From a virus, in the IMG/VR virus record IMGVR_UViG_3300014911_000001, positions 32,001-96,000 of that record: a DNA stretch of 64,000 bases, one strand, 5' to 3'. The position numbers and the translations under genes are program-made. The notes under the pieces are model-generated. The model was not told the DNA's origin. It worked only from the letters and a program-made list of their open reading frames with translations, and made no database searches. Below, in pieces: positions 27,372-42,824 of the stretch (its first letter is position 1; each line of letters begins with the position of its first letter).

Positions 27372-29354
27372 CTACTTATTAGGCCGCCAGCCTGACGCTG
27401 TCTTGAATGCGTAGAACAAGCTCTTCGCCTCCTCTTTACTTATACCGTTCTTTATCGCGATCTGCTCGATGACCAGATCCTCATTAGCAGGAAGAGGAAC
27501 GATATCAATCTCGGATGGATCCTTATCGTCTCTGAATCTGATGAAGCGCGGCGCCCTGAGAGCTTCTTTTCCTAGATCCATCGCGCGGACTTCGATGACT
27601 CTTCCTTTATATTTCTCAGGATGGAGCCACATGTCATCTCTTATTTCGTCTGTGAAGCCGGAACCGACCATCGCGACTACTTTACCCGTAGCATCAGCTG
27701 CTGCTACCTTCCCTGCGGAGTTGGATAACCTTCCTGTACCGGGCAGAATATCAACGATCTTCAAATCATAGGTATCAAATCTTTTTACCTTATACCACTT
27801 ATCCTCTCTTGGCAATCCGTTGGGATCCTTTATAATGATACCTTCGCCCAGTGGCAGATCGTCATCGATCATGTCGCGGAAGAAGTCGGCGGCCTTATCA
27901 GGATCACTGGACTTGAAGTGTATCATCTTTGGCACCGTGAACATCCTCTTGGTCGCGGCTTCAGGTATTTGGTATTTACCATAATAACTCTCATTAAGAA
28001 GCCCGACGATATCCTCGTATATGGTTCTTCTTTCCATGTATGAAGCCGGCGCTGGTATCAGTACTCCGTCCTCTGTGGCCCATCCGATCCAGTCGAATAC
28101 CATTAGTCGGATTAAGCCGCGCTCCTTCTGTGCAAGGACGGCATTCTCGGGACTCGCGTTGAGCATCCCGCTGAGGACATTAGCTCCATCAGGATGCCAC
28201 AGCTCGCCCCGCAGGACCATCCCCACCGCCCGCTCCGGTAGCCATAAGCCCGCGCTCATATGAGGAACATTACCCTCTCTGTGGATCGGATATCCCTCAA
28301 CGGAATACCTTCTACTTACTACAGTAAGAGTAACAGGCACTCCATCAGGCAGATAACCCTCATATTTGAGGAAGGCGCGCTTCAGTGCGTTAATCGCGGC
28401 TCTATCTAAGACTGGTTTGACTATAGCTGGCTGACTCACCTTGAACGACGGACCGGGGTCCTGGCTTTTCTTGGCAGCGGTGAAGACCTTGAGGACCCCA
28501 CCGATGGTCCCCACCGCCCGCCCCGCTTCTTCCCGCGGGCTTACTATGATTTGATCCTCTGTCTTAAGAATCTCATATTCTCCTGTCTCGAAGAACGGTG
28601 CGTTTATTCTTATTATGAAGTTGGCACCATCGACCTTCCGCTCTGCGATAAGCTCCTTACCTTCCTCGACTCTCTTGGTGACATCCTCCGCTGTTTCGAG
28701 GGCTTCATACACTCGCCTCGGGAACCATAATTCCGTAAATCCAGAATGACGGATCGCGATATAATTTTTATCTGTCACCTTAATGAACTCCCACCATCCG
28801 GACCACGGCTCATCTATTTTATACGGTGTGAATACCTCAACAGATTTCAGGTTGGATCTTACTACGCCCGGACTTTGGTATTCGATGGTCATTAAGCCGG
28901 CGCCGTATTGCCCTTCGGGGATTTCACCTTCGAAGTCCTCTGCTAGGATTTTATGATCCTGGGATCTTATCACATTTGTTTTCCATCCGCTTGGTTTCTT
29001 AGGATTATCGTCAGCATGAAGCGGCGGCTTCTTCTTGAACACGAACGATATCAGTCTTTCGCTAGCACTTTTGAGGAGGCGCTGGCTCCGTGTCACAGGA
29101 TATCTGAACCGGAAGTCCCAGTGAAGCCCCGCCGCCCGCGCCTCATGCCTATGCACCGTCACCCTAGTAGGATATGGTTTCAGAGGTCTTAGCTCCATGT
29201 TCTTCTTATAGAGCGCCCGCTTCGTGGATCCCTTAATAACACGCTTTGCGGCTATCTGTGTATACGCTTTAATGAGACCGTTAGTAACAGCCTTATGCAG
29301 GAGAGCACCGGTTATCTTCGTACCAAGGGTTGCTGCTATGTGCCACATTTGCAC
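27372..29354 (-). CDS. ATP-dependent DNA ligase with N-terminal LigD-type 3'-phosphoesterase domain
   Basis: HxA...LHWDFR and DH...FEGEIPEGQYGAG (PE domain); ERKVDG, GE, FD, EGIIIK, WYKVK; OB domain VGSGFT, LRAPRF. Confidence 0.85.
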   Translation of the reverse strand: MQMWHIAATLGTKITGALLHKAVTNGLIKAYTQIAAKRVIKGSTKRALYKKNMELRPLKPYPTRVTVHRHEARAAGLHWDFRFRYPVTRSQRLLKSASERLISFVFKKKPPLHADDNPKKPSGWKTNVIRSQDHKILAEDFEGEIPEGQYGAGLMTIEYQSPGVVRSNLKSVEVFTPYKIDEPWSGWWEFIKVTDKNYIAIRHSGFTELWFPRRVYEALETAEDVTKRVEEGKELIAERKVDGANFIIRINAPFFETGEYEILKTEDQIIVSPREEAGRAVGTIGGVLKVFTAAKKSQDPGPSFKVSQPAIVKPVLDRAAINALKRAFLKYEGYLPDGVPVTLTVVSRRYSVEGYPIHREGNVPHMSAGLWLPERAVGMVLRGELWHPDGANVLSGMLNASPENAVLAQKERGLIRLMVFDWIGWATEDGVLIPAPASYMERRTIYEDIVGLLNESYYGKYQIPEAATKRMFTVPKMIHFKSSDPDKAADFFRDMIDDDLPLGEGIIIKDPNGLPREDKWYKVKRFDTYDLKIVDILPGTGRLSNSAGKVAAADATGKVVAMVGSGFTDEIRDDMWLHPEKYKGRVIEVRAMDLGKEALRAPRFIRFRDDKDPSEIDIVPLPANEDLVIEQIAIKNGISKEEAKSLFYAFKTASGWRPNK

Positions 29355-33749: not shown

Positions 33750-34030
33750 AATCCTGACCTCCTTATCTATTATAGTAGATTTTTATCTTTGCACTCCGTC
33801 CATATCTCCACCTCAATCTCCGCTTTAGCTCGTTTATATCCGCAGCAAAAATCTCATGGAGGCCGTCAGTTCTGACAAACCTCCATGATTTTATATTCCC
33901 CACGTAGGTTGGCTTTCCATTAGGGGCATATGTATGTAGTTTCTCCTTTGTCCTTACTGTTATAACATCAATGTCCTTCAGTAACGGGTAAAATTTCAAC
34001 GACATAAAACACCTCCTTTTTTAATGTGAA

Positions 34031-34081
34031 GCCCGCCATTAAATCGAAGCGCGCAACCCGGCGGGCTTAGGTCGCGCGCTT
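34031..34081 (-). promoter_or_regulatory. 5' leader H-type pseudoknot (PK-h)
   Basis: Stem AAGCGCGCGACC/GGUUGCGCGCUU; loop UAA-GCCCGCC pairs with downstream GGCGGGC; RBS of 34005 follows. Confidence 0.7.
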
Positions 34082-34088
34082 ACTTTTT

Positions 34089-34760
34089 TTATTCCACTTT
34101 ATTGACCCAGTCGGCTTTGGCATACGGCTTGCCGTTTATATACCACCTCTTCTCGGACGTTATGAGCACGGTTTCATAGCGCTCAAGTAGGTAATCGTTA
34201 CGCTCCCTTACCACGACAGCTTTAGGCTCAGGGATGATGGCATCGGTACCATGTGGAGGTGTGGGAGGGAAAATTGAAACGAGCTGACGTGGAAGGATGA
34301 CAAGAGAAAGGTGTTTGCCTTTCTGTTTGATGCGACTCCTGATGGTCTTCTCGAGACCCTTCTCGACGATTACGTAGCCATACGAATCCGCAGCCTCCTG
34401 GGCGAGTGTGTTCGCCATTTTATTCCCTGTTCTGGCTGTGTGTTTTACAATAACCTCCTTATGCTGGTTATCAGCGTAGTACCTAGCCAGCTCATATAAT
34501 TCCATAAGCTCAGGCTTCTTAATATCATATTCTTGGTTAAACTGCTTCACCACTAACTGTGAGTCGCTGTGTATTGTGGTATCACCCTGGATGTACTGGC
34601 TAATGTATGTCGCAAGAACTAGTGCTGCCCATTCAGCCTCGTTGTTTGTTGCCTCCCCAATGGGTATTGATAGTGATATACCAACCTCCGGAATATATAT
34701 CCCAATCCCAGCGGGACCGGGATTGCCTTTTGATGAGCCATCAATGTAAATGTTAGTCAT
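34089..34760 (-). CDS. rnhA: Ribonuclease HI family protein with C-terminal extension
   Basis: [36 protein letters not shown]. Confidence 0.85.
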
Positions 34761-34774
34761 AATACCTCCTTTAT

Positions 34775-35197
34775 TTATGGTTTAACTTTTCGTAAGCCGA
34801 GGCAACCTATCGGTCGTATGCTTCCACTGCTGGTCTTTTCATATACAGGATGAGCAATCGTGTATAACTTGTCTACGTTAGGTAGGTTGAGAGCAACTGC
34901 TGCAGAAGCATATTGATTACTAACAATTATTATATCAGCATCATCAGGGATGGGATCAATATCCTGTATCCTCTGTGTTATAACTGGGATCATAACCTCA
35001 CCGTTCACTGGACATTCGTAAAGGATGCTCGGAAGGAATTCGGTTTCATGGTGGACATTCAGAAGGATTCCGGAGGGTGGAATTATGGTAACTAGCTTGG
35101 TTTTTTCAGGCTCTATGAAGTATTTCCTGTGCTCACTTATGTAAACGGCGTCCTCAAAAATACATATCTCGTGAGGAGTGCAGTTTAAGATTTTCAT
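34775..35197 (-). CDS. Phage hypothetical protein (NxTPH type)
   Basis: [24 protein letters not shown]. Confidence 0.7.
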
Positions 35198-35219
35198 TAC
35201 ATACCTCCTTTTATTAGGC

Positions 35220-35279
35220 GGGCCTCATTACACCACCATGCAGAGCAGCAGGGCGAGGCCCTTAACCCTGAAGCTCTGC
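35220..35279 (-). promoter_or_regulatory. 5' leader pseudoknot (PK-g)
   Basis: Loop UAA-GGGCCUC pairs with GAGGCCC; RBS of 35197 follows. Confidence 0.7.
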
Positions 35280-35294
35280 GAAGAAAGAGAGCTA

Positions 35295-35627
35295 TTAGGA
35301 CAAGCGTTCTGCTTCCTGTCTAATCCGAACGGCATCCCTTACTACCTCTAACAGCGAAGGCGGTATAACCCTATTGTTCGAGGTTTTCCCAGTGCGCAAA
35401 TCAACTGCGACAGCACAATCATGCTCGTAAAAGTATACTATATCCCCATCCGGGAAGAATGTTCCATTAGCAGTAGCAACATTATAAATCAGATCGTTGG
35501 TGTATTCGCCGGGATCGCGATATGGTGTATAATGATCCTGAGCGTCCGGTGTTTCACAACCGGTAGTGCTTCTCACACATACATCACACCTGCCACTTCT
35601 ACACAGACGGCACTTATCAAATAACAT
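35295..35627 (-). CDS. Cys-rich hypothetical protein
   Basis: CxxC...CxxC N-terminus; RBS. Confidence 0.65.
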   Translation of the reverse strand: MLFDKCRLCRSGRCDVCVRSTTGCETPDAQDHYTPYRDPGEYTNDLIYNVATANGTFFPDGDIVYFYEHDCAVAVDLRTGKTSNNRVIPPSLLEVVRDAVRIRQEAERLS

Positions 35628-35654
35628 GATAACCTCCTTATTTTAATGTTTTAT

Positions 35655-35706
35655 GCCCGCCATTAACCAAGCCAGCAAGGACCGGCGGGCTTAGCCCTCA
35701 CTGACT
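35655..35706 (-). promoter_or_regulatory. 5' leader pseudoknot (PK-f)
   Basis: Loop UAA-GCCCGCC pairs with GGCGGGC; RBS of 35627 follows. Confidence 0.7.
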
Positions 35707-35726
35707 ATTAATTTCCAACTAATTGA

Positions 35727-36095
35727 CTACACAAGTGACGGGCCGAGGGCATCCTCTATTTTGGGACGCCCATACTCAACCTTCCACCCATTTTTAGGCG
35801 GAAGGTTGCGGACCCACCAGTCATACCACTGGCGGTCCATCACCTTTATAAGTTTGGATCGCTTGAAAAACACAGCGATCCACTTCCTTCTTCCCCCAGA
35901 ACGAGGGGAGAAAAACCATATAATCTCATTGGGTCGCACCTTGCCTGTTTTAACAAGATGCGACCACTGCGACCCAGTATTCACATTCTGGGCCGCTAAA
36001 ATAAACTCGTAATGGTTGCGCCACCTTTCGATGGCGCTCTCCCCGGATAACAACTTGGGGAGGTTGATTCTCAAGAAGTTAGTTAATGATAACAT
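35727..36095 (-). CDS. Hypothetical protein, paralog of 4362-4706; start trimmed to 36095
   Basis: GAGGAGG before ATG 36095; N-terminus matches paralog. Confidence 0.75.
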   Translation of the reverse strand: MLSLTNFLRINLPKLLSGESAIERWRNHYEFILAAQNVNTGSQWSHLVKTGKVRPNEIIWFFSPRSGGRRKWIAVFFKRSKLIKVMDRQWYDWWVRNLPPKNGWKVEYGRPKIEDALGPSLV

Positions 36096-36119
36096 AATAC
36101 ACCTCCTCTTTTGGAGGTT

Positions 36120-36175
36120 GCCTGCCACTTTTACCCACAGATAAGGCGAGGCCGGCAGGCTTAACCCCGCCTTAT
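36120..36175 (-). promoter_or_regulatory. 5' leader pseudoknot (PK-e)
   Basis: Stem AUAAGGCGGGGU/GCCUCGCCUUAU; loop UAA-GCCUGCC pairs with GGCAGGC. Confidence 0.7.
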
Positions 36176-36285
36176 CTTACTACTCCAGCTCATTGACTCC
36201 ATCACGAGCCAACAAGCCGGCCAAACCCTCCGTCACCCTCGCGGCACCGCTCCTCGCAGGCCGCACACAGGGGAGGAGGGCTTGG

Positions 36286-36353
36286 GGAGGCCTCTTAGAC
36301 CCTCTGTCGAGGGAGCTCCAGCGCCACGCCAAGGCGGGCCTCCAGTGCTGGAG
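36286..36353 (-). ncRNA. HDV-like ribozyme variant Rz1
   Basis: P1 CUCCAGC/GCUGGAG, P2 GGAGGCC/GGCCUCC, P3 GCC/GGC, L3 UUGGCGU, P4 CCCUC/GAGGG, J4/2 UCUAA. Confidence 0.8.
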
Positions 36354-36457
36354 TAGCCCCCGGCACGGGGGCTTCATTCTTTTTTCTCTCCACCTCCTTT
36401 CTAGCGGGATGAGCTAGCCCGGCCACCTAGCCCATCCCGCGGTTTAAGGTTTAACCT

Positions 36458-38857
36458 TTAATCGAGCTTCCAGAAGTTGAGCCAAAATTCGCGATCGGCA
36501 TTAGCAAGAGGATGAAGACCAGCAGGAGTTGTAATCCTAAGAAGCCGCGCGATTTCCCAGTTTCGCTTCCGACCAGTATGAAGTTCCACAAGAAATCTCA
36601 CATGAGATTCAAGTTCAGATTCGGTACCAGCAACAATTGCAAGGAAGTCGTTCTCAGCAACGGTAAGAGATTTCCAAGTGGTAAGAATTGCCTGAGGTTC
36701 AAACGCAGCAAGAAGTTTACGGAATCGCCGGTTGAGTCTCCGGAAGTTCCTAGTAAGAAGTATACGTAGCTCAGCAATCCTGCTGTTGAGGAAGCGCCTA
36801 CGCCGATCCAGTTCCCGTCTCCTATTTTTGAGGGTAGCCAGAGCATCGGATAGGGTATTAAGCCTAGGTAGCAGCCACTTTTCCATTTTCTGCCTCAGAA
36901 CTTCGTTTCTGATCCCAGATACTAGGAACCTGACTTTAGTTTCAGGTTTCGCATTAGCGAAGAGTCTCCGGCTCCGATTAACTACCGTATCAACCGCCGT
37001 CACTTTCTCCGCAAGAGCATTCACTTCATTTTCTATCTTCCGTATCCGAGAGAGCATCCGTCCAAACATGCGCCTCCTTATGCGATCCCACTTGAGGAAC
37101 AATGCCTTAACTTCTGGATCAATGGTGCCATCAGGAATAAGATCCTTAAGAGACCTAACTTCTGGCTCAGCAAACTTAACTTCAGGAATAAATTCAGCAA
37201 GAGGACCTGTCGGAGTTATGGCTGCTGGATCAGCTTTCGCGGTTCGGTTAGTGATCATTTGAGTAATAGTATCAAGCCTGGCAGTCGTACTCGCGAGTAG
37301 ATGCAGTCCCGCTTCTACCTCATGACGAAGCTCCGGTTCTTTACCATTAGCAAGATTCACCGCAGCTTGGAATAGCGCTCCAGCTTTCGCAATAAGATCC
37401 ACATTAATCTCAGTATCAGAAAGAAGCATCCTAGTGAAGCCAGCATCTGCCCGTGCGATCATCTCCTTCCCTAGCTCAATATTTTCCACTTCAGTACTAG
37501 GATCCATTCTCCACTTCCCGAAAGAGATTTCTTTTATCTTGCTTCGTATGCTATCGAAGAATTCCTTAGCAACAAGAGGCTCCTTGAAGACCTTGGATGC
37601 CGCGGCGAGAGCCACTTTGTCGCCATCGGCATCCCATCCGCTAGGCATATCTGCAGGGTGTACCAGAATCGCATGCGCACGATGGTCAACAATAATAGGA
37701 AGGATAAGAGTATCACCAGGCAAGATGGGCGACTTCTGTATGAGTAGGAGTTCTCCATCTTTCAGACCAAGCATACGTGCAATCACAGGAGGAATAACAG
37801 CAGTGCCGGGATGTGCATTCTGAAATCCCAGATAGAAGCCCGGGCCTAGTCTCAACTTCCGAAGTGCGATCTTTAAGTGGTCCAGAAGCACTCTCCGCAG
37901 GAAGCCTGCCTCCTTTATGAGGCCGAATTTCCGCAGAATATCAGCAGTCAGAGTCAGCACTGCACTAGGTTCATTGATCGGATCAGCGTTTTTAACAAGG
38001 ATATCAGCCGCTACCTCAGGATCAGAAAAACCATTAATAGCTTCAGCAATCTGCTCCTGAATCCGTTCAACAAACTCAGGCGCTGGATTAACATTCCATC
38101 CGAGTTTCCTTGGCAGAAGGAACCAGCGCGGCAGAGCTTGGCTGAGACTGATGCCACCCGCGAATACGGCACCAACCTCATGCAGCATGATGGTTCGCCC
38201 GAGTTCGAGTACGAAGCGCCGCCTCTTGATGAGTTTTGCGGTGTCAGCATCAGCGACGATATCAGTCCCTGTCTCTATCTCAGTAAGAACTTTATCAGCA
38301 AGAACCTCATCTCCCAGATACAACATCAGCCTCTGGAACCCGACTCTGCCGGGAAGAACTGGTACCGCTATCCCTTTCAGTCCAATAGCTGTAATCTTAA
38401 AACCACGTTTAATAAGAGCACGAGTTACCGCAGGGATATCAGCTTCTGTAGGAGCATGAGCACGCGCAACCAGCTCTGTAAACCTCTCGGACACGAAGAA
38501 AATTCCGTCTACACCCATTTTAGCATCGAGCTTGAGGCCGCGAACATCCACATTAGCCACTCGCTCAGGTTTAAAGTGCCAGCCCTTATTTGGGATCTCC
38601 GGAGTTGTCATCATCTGAATTCGCTTACCAGGAAGAGTTCTCAGATCAAATCCGTGATCGCCGAGGATATCTGCAATCACCTTATTAACCTTATCAATAG
38701 CAGAAGCAGGAACTACTCTAAAGACCCGACAATCAGGAACCATGGTTGGTTTCATTGGAAGATCAGAGTTCAGATCAGGATCAAATGCGAAGAAGACACT
38801 AGCACCAGCTTCAGCGAATAGAATAGCAAGAGGAGACTTCGGTATTCTTTCCATCAT
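36458..38857 (-). CDS. Putative single-subunit double-psi beta-barrel RNA polymerase (YonO / cellular RdRP-like architecture)
   Basis: Ordered motifs DGIFFVS, GLKG, QKSP, WDADGD; AAAGGAGGT before ATG at 38857/38854. Confidence 0.6.
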   Translation of the reverse strand: MMERIPKSPLAILFAEAGASVFFAFDPDLNSDLPMKPTMVPDCRVFRVVPASAIDKVNKVIADILGDHGFDLRTLPGKRIQMMTTPEIPNKGWHFKPERVANVDVRGLKLDAKMGVDGIFFVSERFTELVARAHAPTEADIPAVTRALIKRGFKITAIGLKGIAVPVLPGRVGFQRLMLYLGDEVLADKVLTEIETGTDIVADADTAKLIKRRRFVLELGRTIMLHEVGAVFAGGISLSQALPRWFLLPRKLGWNVNPAPEFVERIQEQIAEAINGFSDPEVAADILVKNADPINEPSAVLTLTADILRKFGLIKEAGFLRRVLLDHLKIALRKLRLGPGFYLGFQNAHPGTAVIPPVIARMLGLKDGELLLIQKSPILPGDTLILPIIVDHRAHAILVHPADMPSGWDADGDKVALAAASKVFKEPLVAKEFFDSIRSKIKEISFGKWRMDPSTEVENIELGKEMIARADAGFTRMLLSDTEINVDLIAKAGALFQAAVNLANGKEPELRHEVEAGLHLLASTTARLDTITQMITNRTAKADPAAITPTGPLAEFIPEVKFAEPEVRSLKDLIPDGTIDPEVKALFLKWDRIRRRMFGRMLSRIRKIENEVNALAEKVTAVDTVVNRSRRLFANAKPETKVRFLVSGIRNEVLRQKMEKWLLPRLNTLSDALATLKNRRRELDRRRRFLNSRIAELRILLTRNFRRLNRRFRKLLAAFEPQAILTTWKSLTVAENDFLAIVAGTESELESHVRFLVELHTGRKRNWEIARLLRITTPAGLHPLANADREFWLNFWKLD

Positions 38858-39018
38858 ATCACCTCCTTTCCGCCGCGGATTTCGTTGCCCTCGGTGCGGC
38901 ACTCCGAGGGTCGCCGGGCTTCGAGCGTCATTGGTGCCAAGGCTGGCCATAGAATGAAGCCCGGAAATTCCATGGCCATGGCCGGGCGCCTCAGCACCTC
39001 TGCCCTCTTTTTATCCAT
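38854..39018 (-). CDS. Putative 54-aa leader ORF coupled to the polymerase gene
   Basis: AAAGGAGGT before ATG 39018; its TGA overlaps the polymerase ATGATG. Confidence 0.4.
   Translation of the reverse strand: MDKKRAEVLRRPAMAMEFPGFILWPALAPMTLEARRPSECRTEGNEIRGGKEVI
38872..38910 (-). promoter_or_regulatory. 5' leader pseudoknot (PK-d) before polymerase RBS
   Basis: Stem CCCUCGG/CCGAGGG; loop GCCGC pairs with GCGGC next to the RBS. Confidence 0.55.
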
Positions 39019-39042
39019 TCTTTCTTACCTCCTTTATAAATA

Positions 39043-39121
39043 GAGGGACTCTTAGGCCCTTAGGCTATTGACCTAAGGGAGCCCCGGCGCCACGACAAGG
39101 CGGTCCCTCAAAAAGCCGGGG
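39043..39121 (-). ncRNA. HDV-like ribozyme variant Rz2
   Basis: P1 CCCCGGC/GCCGGGG, P2 GAGGGAC/GUCCCUC, P3 GCC/GGC, L3 UUGUCGU, P4 CCCUUAGG/CCUAAGGG, J4/2 CCUAA. Confidence 0.8.
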
Positions 39122-39589
39122 TTAACTCAATTTGACATCATTATTATCCTTCTCTTTCTTTATCCACTCTATCAATTCATCCACTAGGCGCTCCACATTA
39201 TAATCATCAATAATAAGAAGCGCCCTCCTGACCTTGTAGCCGAGCACCTCATGCGCTTTTAGCACATGCCTCGGCATCCAAGGCCAGGTCTCATTGTATC
39301 CCCCATTATATTTGATTTGGAGAAGGATTACCTCCTTCTTATGGGGGATACCAATGCTGACGTCGATTTTAAATACGACGTCAGCTTTACTCCCGATAGG
39401 ATAGTCTATTAATTTCCATCCCGCCGGAAGCTTGGAGGATAGTTCTTCAATGAATCTATCCTCCGCTTCGAAGCCAGCTCTATGCGCCTCATGTGCGATA
39501 GAGCTAACCTCGAAATCCGGGCGGATTATTTCATGACATTCCGCCCAGAATTTTCGCGCTATAGTGCGGGCATGCGTTTCCATATCCAT
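39122..39589 (-). CDS. Putative PD-(D/E)xK-fold nuclease
   Basis: GFEAE...KIDV...LLQIK spacing resembles the E...D...QxK variant. Confidence 0.4.
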   Translation of the reverse strand: MDMETHARTIARKFWAECHEIIRPDFEVSSIAHEAHRAGFEAEDRFIEELSSKLPAGWKLIDYPIGSKADVVFKIDVSIGIPHKKEVILLQIKYNGGYNETWPWMPRHVLKAHEVLGYKVRRALLIIDDYNVERLVDELIEWIKKEKDNNDVKLS

Positions 39590-39601
39590 GGTTGCCTCCT
39601 T

Positions 39602-40177
39602 TTACTCGACAAGAACATGATATATTCCATTTATTTTCTTTACTTTCCTTACTCTAAATAAACATTTATCCACAATTACTTCCTCTTCTTCACAATAAGG
39701 TTGCAAATTCAACAATCTCCCCTCTGCTTTAGTCATAAATACAACAGGAACTACATCAGGAAAATTATATCCTTCCCACAAATCCGGGTCATCAAACTCG
39801 TTATCATAACTTCTCTTTTTTCAAATTGCGAAGCGCTTTGCAACTGCATAACGCCTCGTCCAACTCATATTGATAGATATTTTCCTCCCTATCTGAGGGA
39901 TAGCATATACAACATCCCCTCTGAATAATAGTGATCTTACCTTAGGACACCCTAATAACGATATTTTTAAGGCGAGCTTAGAAATATAGATACCTCTCCC
40001 CTTCCACATTCTCAGCAAAGCGATCCTATTGTCTTTTGAAAATATCCCGCACAAAATTCTCAGCTTTTTCAATAACAGCTTGTATTTCATTTGGAGATGG
40101 TTCAGCTTTATTTCCCAACTCCTGTAAAAAACATTCCTTTTAGGATCTTTAATGAATAACGAAATGACCCACCACAT
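39602..40177 (-). pseudogene. ADP-ribosyltransferase-like gene interrupted by in-frame TGA at 39821-39823
   Basis: LFRG and SWT before the stop; frame stays open 72 more codons containing EEEVIV. Confidence 0.6.
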
Positions 40178-40192
40178 TGTTACACCTCCTTT

Positions 40193-40251
40193 TGCCCGTA
40201 TTAGTTTACCAAGGGCACCATCTGACCTGCGGGCATTGATCAGACGGTGCC
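40193..40251 (-). promoter_or_regulatory. 5' leader pseudoknot (PK-c)
   Basis: Stem GGCACCGUCUGAUC/GGUCAGAUGGUGCC; loop UGCCCG pairs with CGGGCA next to the RBS of 40177. Confidence 0.6.
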
Positions 40252-40320
40252 TATGTTACAAAACGGGCACCGTATAGTCATGGTAACAATACGGTGCCCT
40301 CACAACATCCCCTTTTATTA

Positions 40321-40396
40321 GGGTGCTCTTAGACCCTTAGGGATTGGACCTAAGGGAGCCCCTCCACCACGTCAAGGTGGCACCCTATCGGAGGGG
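40321..40396 (-). ncRNA. HDV-like ribozyme variant Rz3
   Basis: P1 CCCCUCC/GGAGGGG, P2 GGGUGC/GCACCC, P3 ACC/GGU, L3 UUGACGU, P4 CCCUUAGG/CCUAAGGG, J4/2 UCUAA. Confidence 0.8.
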
Positions 40397-40449
40397 TAGC
40401 AAGGCCATCATGTGAGGCCTTGCTTTGGCTTGGGCGGCACCTCATCATC

Positions 40450-40746
40450 TTACACATAAAAGCGATCCAACCCCTCAATATGAGGGGTTGTTTTGCTCTC
40501 CCTATCAACGATGTACAAGTTAGTCCCTATCCGAAATATGTCATGATACTTACACGCCTCCGGCTCCACAATAAGCTCTGCATCCTCAGGTATATATCCA
40601 ACCCATCCTTTGTACAAGCACCTCCGCACTAAGACATGAGTAAAACAGCTGGAATCAACAAGTGTAAGTCTATCATCATCATCATCGTAAATTCCGATAT
40701 ACCAGTAGTTATCTCTCACCAAGACTTTAATGACTTTTACCGCCAC
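40450..40746 (-). CDS. Hypothetical protein; GTG start at 40746
   Basis: AAAGGAGG upstream of GTG; the longer ORF start lies within RNA structure. Confidence 0.65.
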   Translation of the reverse strand: MAVKVIKVLVRDNYWYIGIYDDDDDRLTLVDSSCFTHVLVRRCLYKGWVGYIPEDAELIVEPEACKYHDIFRIGTNLYIVDRESKTTPHIEGLDRFYV

Positions 40747-40761
40747 GATAAACCTCCTTTC

Positions 40762-40820
40762 GCCGCACCTCAGTTCAGCCCCCGACACGCATGCGGTGCG
40801 GCATTTACATACGTGTCGGG
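40762..40820 (-). promoter_or_regulatory. 5' leader pseudoknot (PK-b)
   Basis: 14-bp stem; loop AAAU-GCCGCACC pairs with GGUGCGGC abutting the RBS. Confidence 0.7.
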
Positions 40821-40836
40821 ATGCCGCCCAAGCCAT

Positions 40837-40907
40837 CGGACGCTCTTAGACCTAGCCACAAGGCTAGGAGCCCCTCCACCACGTCAAGGTGGCGTCCGTC
40901 GGAGGGG
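40837..40907 (-). ncRNA. HDV-like ribozyme variant Rz4
   Basis: P1 CCCCUCC/GGAGGGG, P2 CGGACGC/GCGUCCG, P3 ACC/GGU, L3 UUGACGU, P4 CCUAGC/GCUAGG, J4/2 UCUAA. Confidence 0.8.
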
Positions 40908-40956
40908 TAGCAAGGCCATGCGAGACCTTGCTTTGTCTGCGGGGGCACCATGAATA

Positions 40957-41190
40957 TTATAACTCTGATGGACGGGGCCTCTGTAACGATTCAAAATATA
41001 GCGATAAAGCCTCCATGAATGTCACAGGAATCCCTTTTTTCTTATACTGGAATGGAGGCGCCGGAACATTACCCAGCACCTCCTTTGTTATTTTTATTGC
41101 AATGTAACCTCTAAGTTCCTTAAACCGGTATGTCTTGATTTCACCATTATTATAAATGGTGATAGCATTCACGTTTTTTGACATCCTCAT
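40957..41190 (-). CDS. Small hypothetical protein
   Basis: GGAGG RBS; sits inside RNA cassette. Confidence 0.65.
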   Translation of the reverse strand: MRMSKNVNAITIYNNGEIKTYRFKELRGYIAIKITKEVLGNVPAPPFQYKKKGIPVTFMEALSLYFESLQRPRPSEL

Positions 41191-41206
41191 TTTATCCTCC
41201 TTTTTC

Positions 41207-41266
41207 GCCGCGCCTTGGTTCTACGCCCAGCATGTACGCGGCGCGGCATTTACGCACATGCTGGGC
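41207..41266 (-). promoter_or_regulatory. 5' leader pseudoknot (PK-a)
   Basis: 15-bp stem; loop AAAU-GCCGCGCC pairs with GGCGCGGC next to the RBS. Confidence 0.7.
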
Positions 41267-41759
41267 TGGCGCCCCCGCAATCCCCTATTAGCCGAGGAAG
41301 CAAATCAAAAATCAAGGGGGCAGGGGGGTCGAAATACAATCCGACCCCCTCAAAATCCACAATAGAGACCTCCTGAATTTTTTGCCGATTTCTTGACCCT
41401 TATGGACCTCCCTGTAGACTCATTCCGACGGGGTACCTTGCGGCATAGGGAGGTGTTCTATGAGGTTGTTGGTTGGACTGGATATGGGCTTGTGATGGTT
41501 ATTGTGTTAGGGTCTGGGGGGTGTGGGACCTCTTGTGGGCTTGTTTGTGACTATGTGGGTTGGTGTGGGCTACCCCTTTTCGACCCTATGGGTCTGCTCT
41601 CTATAAGGCTTCCTGCTTCAGCGAGGGATAGCTAGGCTTATGTGAAGCCCCCGCCAGAGCCCTCTCCACAGGCATAAGTTCGGGCCGCCCCGGCCCTACC
41701 ACCCGTGAGGTGGGTGAGCCCATTTTTTGTGATGTATGTTGTGTGTATGTTAGCATTTT

Positions 41760-42203
41760 TTATATACCTGTGCTACCGAATCCATTTTGGTTGCGTGTTG
41801 TGGGTGTTACATCATTGACAGGTTCGAATTCGCATGGATGTATTCGTGATATTATTATTTGGGCTATTCTATCGCCGTCTTTTATGGTAATGTTTTTGTT
41901 ACCGAGGTTGATGAGGATGACCATTATTTCGCCTCTGTAGTCGCTATCTATGGTTCCTGGTGAGTTAAGGACCGTTAGTCCGTGTCTGAGTGCTAGTCCA
42001 CTTCTTGGGCGGATTTGTGCTTCGTAGTTGTTGGGTAGTTCTAGTATGAAGCCGGCCGGTATGGCTTTATATTCACCCGGGTGTAGTGTTATGGGTTTTT
42101 GGAGTCTTGCGAAGATGTCGTAGCCTGCTGAACCCGGGGTCATTTTTCTTGGCATTGTACCGCCGGGCAGAAGTTTTAGTTTGATTTTATTAGTGTTACT
42201 CAT
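41760..42203 (-). CDS. dut: Trimeric dUTPase (probable start MSNTNK)
   Basis: AGYD, RSG, GTIDSDYRGE, RIAQ, RNQNGFGSTG. Confidence 0.93.
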   Translation of the reverse strand: MSNTNKIKLKLLPGGTMPRKMTPGSAGYDIFARLQKPITLHPGEYKAIPAGFILELPNNYEAQIRPRSGLALRHGLTVLNSPGTIDSDYRGEIMVILINLGNKNITIKDGDRIAQIIISRIHPCEFEPVNDVTPTTRNQNGFGSTGI

Positions 42204-42428
42204 GGCTACTGGATTTAATTTGTTCGTTCTTACTGTTACTAATAGGTTTGATACCCAGTACCCATTGGGCACCGCATTCACATATTAGTGTCATCCTTTT
42301 ATACCCTTGCGTATCGGATGCTGTGAATACGATGGACACAGATTGACCGTCTTTTAGGTTCCATCCTTCTATTATGTTTGTTTTACCGCATACGGGGCAT
42401 GTGAAGAAGCCCGCCCATTTTTGTTCCT

Positions 42429-42824
42429 TCATTTTATCTCCTTATTGTTTTTATCGTTGAAATATGTTTTTCTAAATTCCTCTAGGATAGGTTCATCACC
42501 TGTACCATAGAGGACGGCGTGCATCCATTCAGTTACTTGATCTGCTGTATGGTGTGGAAATACATCCTTCATGCATCCGAAGTATTTTTGCCAGTTGGTT
42601 GGTTTAGGTTTTTTATGTTCTTTTATAGTCCATTTTTTGGTAGCTGTGGCGGATCCGTAGGTTGTGAGGATGAGGCCTATAATTATTATTATTATGGTGT
42701 ATGTAGTGGGATTATTGGTGTAGTGGTGGAGGAGGAAGCCGGCCGCAGTGGTAAGGAGGCCCCAGAATCGTTTGCTTTTCCAGAAGGGTTTGGTGTTATT
42801 ATTGTTATTATCGTGTGTGCTCAT
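42429..42824 (-). CDS. Holin-like two-TM membrane protein
   Basis: KPFWKSKRFWG followed by two hydrophobic helices. Confidence 0.45.
   Translation of the reverse strand: MSTHDNNNNNTKPFWKSKRFWGLLTTAAGFLLHHYTNNPTTYTIIIIIIGLILTTYGSATATKKWTIKEHKKPKPTNWQKYFGCMKDVFPHHTADQVTEWMHAVLYGTGDEPILEEFRKTYFNDKNNKEIK

Follow-up and report, generated by a model that had tools for sequence, protein, structure and literature searches.

A 64,000-nucleotide stretch of DNA from an uncultured phage (bases 32001-96000 of the 176-kb record IMGVR_UViG_3300014911_000001, hereafter the window) contains two cassettes in which a single small gene, next to predicted self-cleaving ribozymes like that of hepatitis delta virus (HDV), is enclosed by a long-range stem, here called a clamp. 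Comparison with related contigs confirms, at the level of sequence, that the clamps are selected RNA helices on the coding strand, and that they are position-specific, covarying and cassette-specific. The most favoured explanation, with a probability of about 0.5, is that each helix closes a short processed message non-covalently. The region 39600-42200 of the window was read on both strands, and all relevant features are on the minus strand.

The clamps as RNA helices

Clamp 2 is a perfect inverted repeat of 14 nucleotides (nt) in direct reading (40822-40835 and 40426-40439). As minus-strand RNA it is extended inward by a U.G and a C-G pair to 16 base pairs (bp) between 40835-40820 and 40441-40426. 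Clamp 1 has 13 bp between 41267-41279 and 40938-40950, of which one, internal, is G.U on the minus-strand RNA; a terminal U.G brings it to 14 bp (41280-41267 and 40950-40937). A first-pass annotation, made from the sequence of the window, had described a perfect 14-bp repeat around the open reading frame (ORF) at 40450-40746 and a 13-bp stem with one G-U around the ORF at 40957-41190, and both descriptions proved correct in extent and coordinates. So did its observations that each clamp encloses one small gene beside ribozymes and that the two clamps differ in sequence. The arms of neighbouring cassettes are orthogonal, with 12-16 bp between cognate arms and at most 6 bp between non-cognate arms within one phage. 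In RNAfold predictions every clamp pair belongs to the minimum-free-energy fold, with a mean pair probability of 0.95-0.98 at 37, 60 and 75 C, and the GC-rich helix of 12-16 bp is predicted to be able to stack on stem 1 of the pseudoknot in the leader.

The length of the clamps is not significant in itself, because the whole window has two perfect inverted repeats of at least 13 nt at a spacing of 150-1500 nt, compared with 1.3 expected from shuffled sequences; an argument from repeat length alone was rejected on these numbers. A positional test compared the 60 nt after the ribozyme (in cassette 1, the 60 nt from 41300) with the 80 nt before the next cut, using 300 shuffles of the 3' stretch. 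The stem scores were 42 for clamp 2 and 36 for clamp 1 against a shuffle mean of about 19, and the observed score was reached by none of the 300 shuffles for clamp 2 and by one of 300 for clamp 1. The case for the clamps rests on this position together with the related contigs, and it is the comparison of relatives that settles whether they are real.

The same array of cassettes is present in a 147-kb IMG/VR contig (L008) and in the vent-metagenome contigs L009, L030, L031 and L032. Over six contigs there are nine complete clamps, which represent four mutually orthogonal sequence types at equivalent positions (UGGCUUGGGCGGCA, GGCUUGGUCCUGCC, UUGCGGGGGCGCCA and AGGCCGGCCGGU). The listed clamp pairs are all standard (133 of 133), with 120 Watson-Crick and 13 G.U pairs. 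At least five clamp pairs are changed on both sides between cassette 2 of the window and its homologue in L009, whose ORF has 56% nucleotide identity, and the innermost two pairs of clamp 2 read UC/GG in the window, against AG/UU in L008. The 5' arm of clamp 1 does not vary; its 3' arm has three different C-to-U changes, in three contigs, and each gives a G.U pair. The only disruptive change is a C.A at the outermost pair, seen in L030 and L009.

The independent internal mismatches are all G.U on the minus-strand, coding RNA (five of five) and none is A.C, which argues for selection on the transcript and not on a DNA hairpin or a protein-bound inverted repeat. The arms are still complementary around ORFs that are unrelated (46-48% aligned nucleotide identity, no higher than for unrelated sequence) or diverged (55-69%), with flanks that are 95-100% identical. 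The clamps also show what characterises pairing between untranslated regions (UTRs) of the hbs type, namely a helix between the 5'- and 3'-UTR of one message that is kept through compensatory change.

Structure of the cassettes

Each unit has the same order of parts: clamp arm, H-type leader pseudoknot, Shine-Dalgarno sequence, small ORF (77 or 98 amino acids), clamp arm, hairpin and ribozyme. The ribozymes are numbered Rz1 to Rz4 by position in the window, and cassette 2 lies between Rz4 and Rz3. The features are, in the direction of transcription:

41267..41280, minus strand: 5' arm of the cassette 1 clamp, UUGCGGGGGCGCCA; same arm in L008 and L032; no ribozyme upstream by covariance model
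41205..41266, minus strand: H-type leader pseudoknot of cassette 1; the hairpin loop UAAAUGCCGCGCC is paired to GGCGCGGC immediately 5' of the Shine-Dalgarno sequence, which is followed by AUG at 41190
40957..41190, minus strand: ORF of cassette 1, 77 amino acids, orphan; an unrelated ORF of 94 amino acids in the same place in L008
40937..40950, minus strand: 3' arm of the cassette 1 clamp, UGGUGCCCCCGCAG; three different C-to-U variants in relatives, all still pairing as G.U
40909..40932, minus strand: 3' hairpin of cassette 1, AGCAAGGUC...GGCCUUGCU; followed by A40908, the -1 nucleotide
40837..40907, minus strand: Rz4, HDV-like fold, 78.5 bits; predicted to remain on the 5' end of the cassette 2 RNA after the cut
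40820..40835, minus strand: 5' arm of the cassette 2 clamp, UGGCUUGGGCGGCAUC; begins 1 nt past P2 of Rz4
40760..40819, minus strand: leader pseudoknot of cassette 2; stem 1 CCGACACG/CGUGUCGG, stem 2 GCCGCACC/GGUGCGGC; followed by the Shine-Dalgarno sequence at 40757-40753 and GUG at 40746
40450..40746, minus strand: ORF of cassette 2, 98 amino acids, orphan; homologues in L032, L009 and L031; an unrelated ORF of 68 amino acids between the same arms in L008 and L030
40426..40441, minus strand: 3' arm of the cassette 2 clamp, GGUGCCGCCCAAGCCA; 8 nt past the stop codon
40398..40424, minus strand: 3' hairpin of cassette 2, AGCAAGGCC...GGCCUUGCU; followed by A40397, the -1 nucleotide
40320..40396, minus strand: Rz3, HDV-like fold, 82.4 bits; its predicted cut sets the 3' end of the cassette 2 RNA

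Stem 2 of the leader pseudoknot covaries between cassettes (GCCGCACC/GGUGCGGC, GCCGCGCC/GGCGCGGC and GCCGCGGU/ACCGCGGC). The distance from stop codon to clamp is 6-12 nt. The 3' arm of clamp 2 is placed 8 nt past the stop codon and 1 nt ahead of the hairpin and that of clamp 1 6 nt past the stop codon and 5 nt ahead of the hairpin, so the positions of the two clamps, annotated as identical, are equivalent but differ by a few nucleotides at the 3' arm. The annotated hairpin is present as described: an AGCAAGG...CCUUGCU hairpin follows each 3' arm (40424-40398 in cassette 2 and 40932-40909 in cassette 1), and a single A separates it from the first P1 pair of the HDV-like fold, with predicted cuts between 40397 and 40396 and between 40908 and 40907.

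Several features surround the array. A stable GC hairpin followed by a U-rich tract (41322-41351, minus strand) precedes the first clamp arm by about 40 nt, is conserved in L008 and may end an upstream unit. No sigma-70-type promoter was found on the coding strand ahead of cassette 1. An IS605-type tnpB is located about 1.5 kb upstream of the cassettes. Outside the cassettes, Rfam RAGATH-18 is weakly matched at 41610-41672 (minus strand), with 29.3 bits against a gathering score of 44.9 and E 0.011.

The HDV-like ribozymes

The window has four copies of the ribozyme (36286-36354, 39043-39122, 40320-40397 and 40837-40908), and there are no others in the 176-kb genome. Rfam gave nothing at the gathering score, and at E up to 10 in 39000-42500 it again gave no match to the ribozymes. 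The same fold was collected from relatives and from unrelated phages, a covariance model was built and 30 matches were realigned. The fold is a nested double pseudoknot in the order P1-P2-P3-L3-P3'-P1'-P4-J4/2-P2', where P2 is written as the pseudoknot. Among 21 distinct sequences 96.8% of the cells are paired and 21 of 25 pairs are changed on both sides, values that neither shuffles nor slid registers come near. An HDV-like ribozyme fold is strongly supported by this covariation.

The cytosine at the catalytic position opens J4/2 in the motif CUAAGAG, which is invariant in an alignment of 18 sequences with the second copy in L007 as the exception (UCCAAGA in place of UCUAAGA), an invariance that is partly by construction because most sequences were retrieved with patterns requiring CTAAGAG. 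All 21 distinct sequences open P1 with a C-G pair, in place of the canonical G1.U37 wobble at the base of P1. The fold implies cutting 5' of P1, which would leave a 5'-OH and a 2',3'-cyclic phosphate, and the ribozyme would stay on the downstream RNA because the HDV type cuts at its own 5' edge. A pattern scan of genome contigs gave 11 matches that look like chance since none has a P1 of 7 bp.

The surroundings of the other copies were also noted. A conserved Shine-Dalgarno sequence and AUG are found directly before the hairpin preceding Rz1 (36355-36400, minus strand; also in L008, L019, L020 and L029). The Rz1 cut would truncate this frame after about 8 codons, and since strains do not share the frame across Rz1, a ribosome-loading site is suggested and not a gene. 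At Rz2, the UAA stop codon of an ORF of 155 amino acids (39122-39124, minus strand) abuts the predicted cut without a 3' hairpin, and the processed message would therefore end exactly at the stop codon. The gene after Rz3 looks split or frameshifted in the window genome compared with L009, where the ORFs of 118 and 59 amino acids at 39602-40177 are one ORF of about 183 amino acids (reverse-complement ~1044-1592). An ORF of 54 amino acids with a strong Shine-Dalgarno sequence (38854-39018) precedes a polymerase-like ORF of 830 amino acids. The listed start of the latter at 38950 has no ribosome-binding site, and an AUG near 38857 (MMERIPK) after an AGGAGG-type sequence is likelier. Two AT-rich viral contigs (L005 6890-7300 and L006 2618-3000, minus strand) have the same ribozyme class with a minimal P4 of 3 bp, and there the ribozyme follows a non-coding stretch of about 400 nt that is conserved between both contigs and structured-looking.

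Exchange of genes between the clamps

The gene inside a clamp varies between strains. Clamp 1 encloses an ORF of 77 amino acids in the window and an unrelated ORF of 94 amino acids in L008; clamp 2 encloses 98 amino acids in the window, and in L008 and L030 it encloses 68 amino acids and the pseudoknot differs. L008, L030 and L031 also have a third cassette, which brings a clamp and a hairpin of its own, so that L008 has three cassettes and the window two. When the window is compared with L032, identity is 95-100% in leaders and ribozymes and 55-69% in the ORFs. Judged from these comparisons, the locus is a hypervariable early-gene site with conserved RNA modules around exchangeable small genes.

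The cassette proteins gave no Pfam or PHROG family and no usable Atlas match, and one homologue (P0002) was found outside the genome's own cluster. Searching viral contigs with the pattern of the leader pseudoknot returned only chance matches in GC-rich phages, apart from L008, and there was no DNA match among GenBank phages.

Proposed closure of the processed messages

The suggested mechanism begins with a long early transcript from the minus strand. Each HDV-like ribozyme in it would cut at its own 5' edge, as expected from the fold. A released single-gene RNA would then be composed of (a 5'-OH ribozyme,) a clamp arm, the leader pseudoknot, the Shine-Dalgarno sequence, the small ORF, the other clamp arm, the hairpin and an A with a 2',3'-cyclic phosphate. 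Pairing of the two arms would create a junction at which their helix meets the 3' hairpin and the P2 of the retained ribozyme, and the variable ORF would be looped out. Such an RNA would have no single-stranded tail at either end and its UTRs would be masked, which would hinder the entry of both exo- and endonucleases. This protection would matter for messages of about 400-500 nt, probably at high temperature. The constant parts of the RNA would fold alike whatever ORF is inserted, which fits the observed swapping of ORFs. The stop codon and the ribosome-binding site would be held close to each other, and this could favour re-initiation.

The clamp is limited in distribution. Genes downstream of the ribozymes have pseudoknot leaders but neither clamps nor ribozymes, and no clamp was found after Rz3, Rz2 or Rz1 or in L005, L006, L007, L018 and L028, which have the same ribozyme class. 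For that reason the clamp was rejected as something that generally accompanies this ribozyme class. The hairpin-A-ribozyme module is widespread among the contigs compared, and by the same comparison this phage lineage has the clamp in addition, in its small cassettes. As a separate observation, four further genes downstream of Rz1 (34000-36200, minus strand) have pseudoknot leaders in which loops with UAAG and a G/C run, for example UAAGCCCGCCGG, pair just 5' of the Shine-Dalgarno sequence.

Four points weigh against closure of the message as the role of the clamp. The Rz3-to-Rz2 and Rz2-to-Rz1 segments, which are larger and belong to the same operon, have no comparable contiguous end stem. 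In an unrelated GC-rich viral contig (L007 7576-8286, plus strand) one gene lies between two ribozymes of the same class with a hairpin and an A before each but no clamp, so processing by ribozymes does not need one. The ends could already be protected by the 3' hairpin and the 5' ribozyme by themselves. Finally, stability, insulation and ribosome recycling are not separable from sequence alone.

Possible ligation into circles

The ends left by ribozymes of this type, a 5'-OH and a 2',3'-cyclic phosphate, are the substrates of the RNA ligase RtcB. An unlikely explanation is that after both cuts an RtcB of the host ligates the 5'-OH at 40907 to the 2',3'-cyclic phosphate at 40397, and that the clamp holds the molecule closed. 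The clamp would raise the local concentration of the two ends, and a host enzyme is plausible because RtcB is present in 10 of 14 control genomes, thermophiles included. Engineered systems with ribozymes and RtcB circularise messenger RNA (mRNA) in E. coli (PMC12628768). Circular products were raised by Perreault et al. for clustered phage hammerheads, but circles could not be detected there (PMC3088659).

The geometry of the cassette speaks against ligation. An HDV-type ribozyme stays on the downstream product, so nucleotide 40907 with the 5'-OH takes part in P1 and precedes the 5' arm by 72 nt; the 3' end at 40397 is 28 nt past the 3' arm and behind the hairpin. The clamp thus joins the UTRs and not the termini, which do not come together in one helix or loop as in ribozyme/RtcB circles of the Tornado or retrozyme type. 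The HDV topology has P1 stacked on P1.1 and P4, beside the stack of P2 and P3 (PMC13635239). In the folded ribozyme the 5' end would accordingly lie far from the junction, which forms at the outer end of P2, and the two ends would be tens of angstroms apart. A ligated junction would also rebuild the hairpin-A-C-P1 site and be open to re-cutting, although this argument is not decisive because strain in the clamp might hinder refolding of the ribozyme.

Cassette 1 gives a further reason for doubt, since it has a clamp and a covariance-model search of the 176-kb genome found no ribozyme upstream of it; the role of the clamp should therefore be independent of a ribozyme-made 5' end. A search of the phage genome for an RNA ligase, as proposed in the first-pass annotation, found neither RtcB nor a T4-Rnl1-type ligase. 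The sole ligase candidate in the phage is a divergent protein of 660 amino acids that resembles ATP-dependent DNA ligases (27372-29354, minus strand). Its N-terminal stretch resembles the 3'-phosphoesterase domain of LigD, below curated cut-offs.

The annotation had proposed that the clamp brings the ends of the Rz4-Rz3 fragment together for ligation or protection. Protection is a reasonable role; the joining of the termini does not agree with their distances from the arms. The observation itself is confirmed by sequence comparison and the ligation reading is unsupported. It is quite improbable that the RNAs are natural circular mRNAs in which a host RtcB-type ligase closes the clamped RNA and strain in the clamp stops the retained ribozyme from refolding and re-cutting. 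If this were true, the first small proteins of the phage would have long-lived, exonuclease-proof messages, and the cassettes would be a natural forerunner of the engineered ribozyme/RtcB circles.

Other explanations

Long-range stems around ribosomal RNA are substrates of RNase III, and the early mRNAs of phage T7 are separated by this enzyme. The clamp could by analogy be a recognition or cleavage site for a double-strand-specific factor, either an RNase III-type enzyme or an RNA-binding protein of phage or host, that trims or regulates the cassette. A GC-rich helix of this size that might stack on stem 1 of the pseudoknot would suit such a factor. However, the four clamp types have no sequence in common, so that only their shape could be recognised, the helices fall short of about two turns, and a second processing system would be redundant since the ribozymes already cut. 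Recognition by such a factor is for these reasons held to be quite unlikely, and closure of the message by the helix itself is preferred.

It is very unlikely that the arms are a DNA-level signal, that is, terminal inverted repeats or recombination sites for moving or swapping ORF modules, with the RNA pairing as a by-product: different ORFs between the same arms, a cassette number that varies among strains, the upstream tnpB and the module shuffling driven by conserved regulatory cassettes in T4-type phages (PMC2839356) would fit, but all internal mismatches are G.U on the RNA of the transcribed strand, where a hairpin of the other DNA strand would have A/C mismatches, neighbouring cassettes have different arms, whereas one mobile element family would have its repeats in common, the cassettes contain orphan ORFs of 68-98 amino acids and no transposase or integrase, no cassette is inverted in the six contigs, and ordinary homologous recombination in the 95-100% identical flanks explains the swapping. 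The shared repeats, transposase and strand-indifferent mismatches that mark the terminal inverted repeats of a mobile element were not found here.

Comparison with known systems

To our knowledge, most self-cleaving ribozymes of phages and bacteria have no assigned job. The clamped cassettes suggest a concrete one, which is to make and close stable single-gene messages independently of host RNases. The ribozyme would then be one part of a repeated, portable RNA expression cassette made up of ribozyme, end clamp, leader pseudoknot and 3' hairpin, in which unrelated small genes are swapped between strains.

RNase III cuts the polycistronic early transcript of T7 into single messages that end in protective hairpins, and in insulators of the RiboJ type a ribozyme with a hairpin makes expression independent of context. 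In the cassettes the RNA itself is predicted to do the cutting, and the long-range closure has no counterpart in either system. In the original Tornado design both termini are reportedly in one stem. Systems of the Tornado type resemble the cassettes in having a coding RNA between self-cleaving ribozymes, 5'-OH and 2',3'-cyclic phosphate ends and insulating hairpins beside the coding region, but there both ribozymes are removed, while here the upstream ribozyme would be retained and the termini are 72 and 28 nt from the stem (PMC12628768).

The closest genomic precedent is that of clustered hammerheads in prophages, which flank single genes or short gene blocks; their function was left open, and circles were sought but not found (Perreault et al. 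2011, PMC3088659). The likeness is that several ribozymes of one class punctuate a phage transcript and turn single genes, whose identity varies, into separate RNAs. The ribozymes here differ in being HDV-like and in being predicted to cut at their own 5' edge, so that they stay on the downstream RNA. Each small gene here also has a covarying clamp between the 5' and 3' ends, a leader pseudoknot and a 3' hairpin, and the hammerhead paper, as far as it was read, describes no clamp (PMC3088659).

A 14-bp pairing of the 5'- with the 3'-UTR has been described in the hbs mRNA of Bacillus subtilis (Braun, Durand, Condon 2017, PMC5737220). Both are short single-gene messages whose UTRs pair over about 14 bp, and in hbs the pairing modulates the access of an endonuclease. 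The ends of the hbs message are generated by transcription and RNase Y, only one gene is concerned and the function has been shown, whereas the present ends would be made by ribozymes and the clamps belong to a family of swappable cassettes known from sequence alone. PeSL cassettes of T4-type phages (Arbiol et al. 2010, PMC2839356) are similar in that short conserved non-coding cassettes flank small, non-essential and variable ORFs with modular shuffling among related phages. They are promoter and terminator stem-loops that act at the level of DNA and transcription, in contrast to the ribozyme, clamp, pseudoknot and hairpin on the RNA here.

Ribozyme-punctuated phage transcripts and pairing between 5'- and 3'-UTRs are thus already known, and the end-clamped cassettes vary on both. 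This apparent natural design is close to the synthetic ribozyme insulators and circular-mRNA systems.

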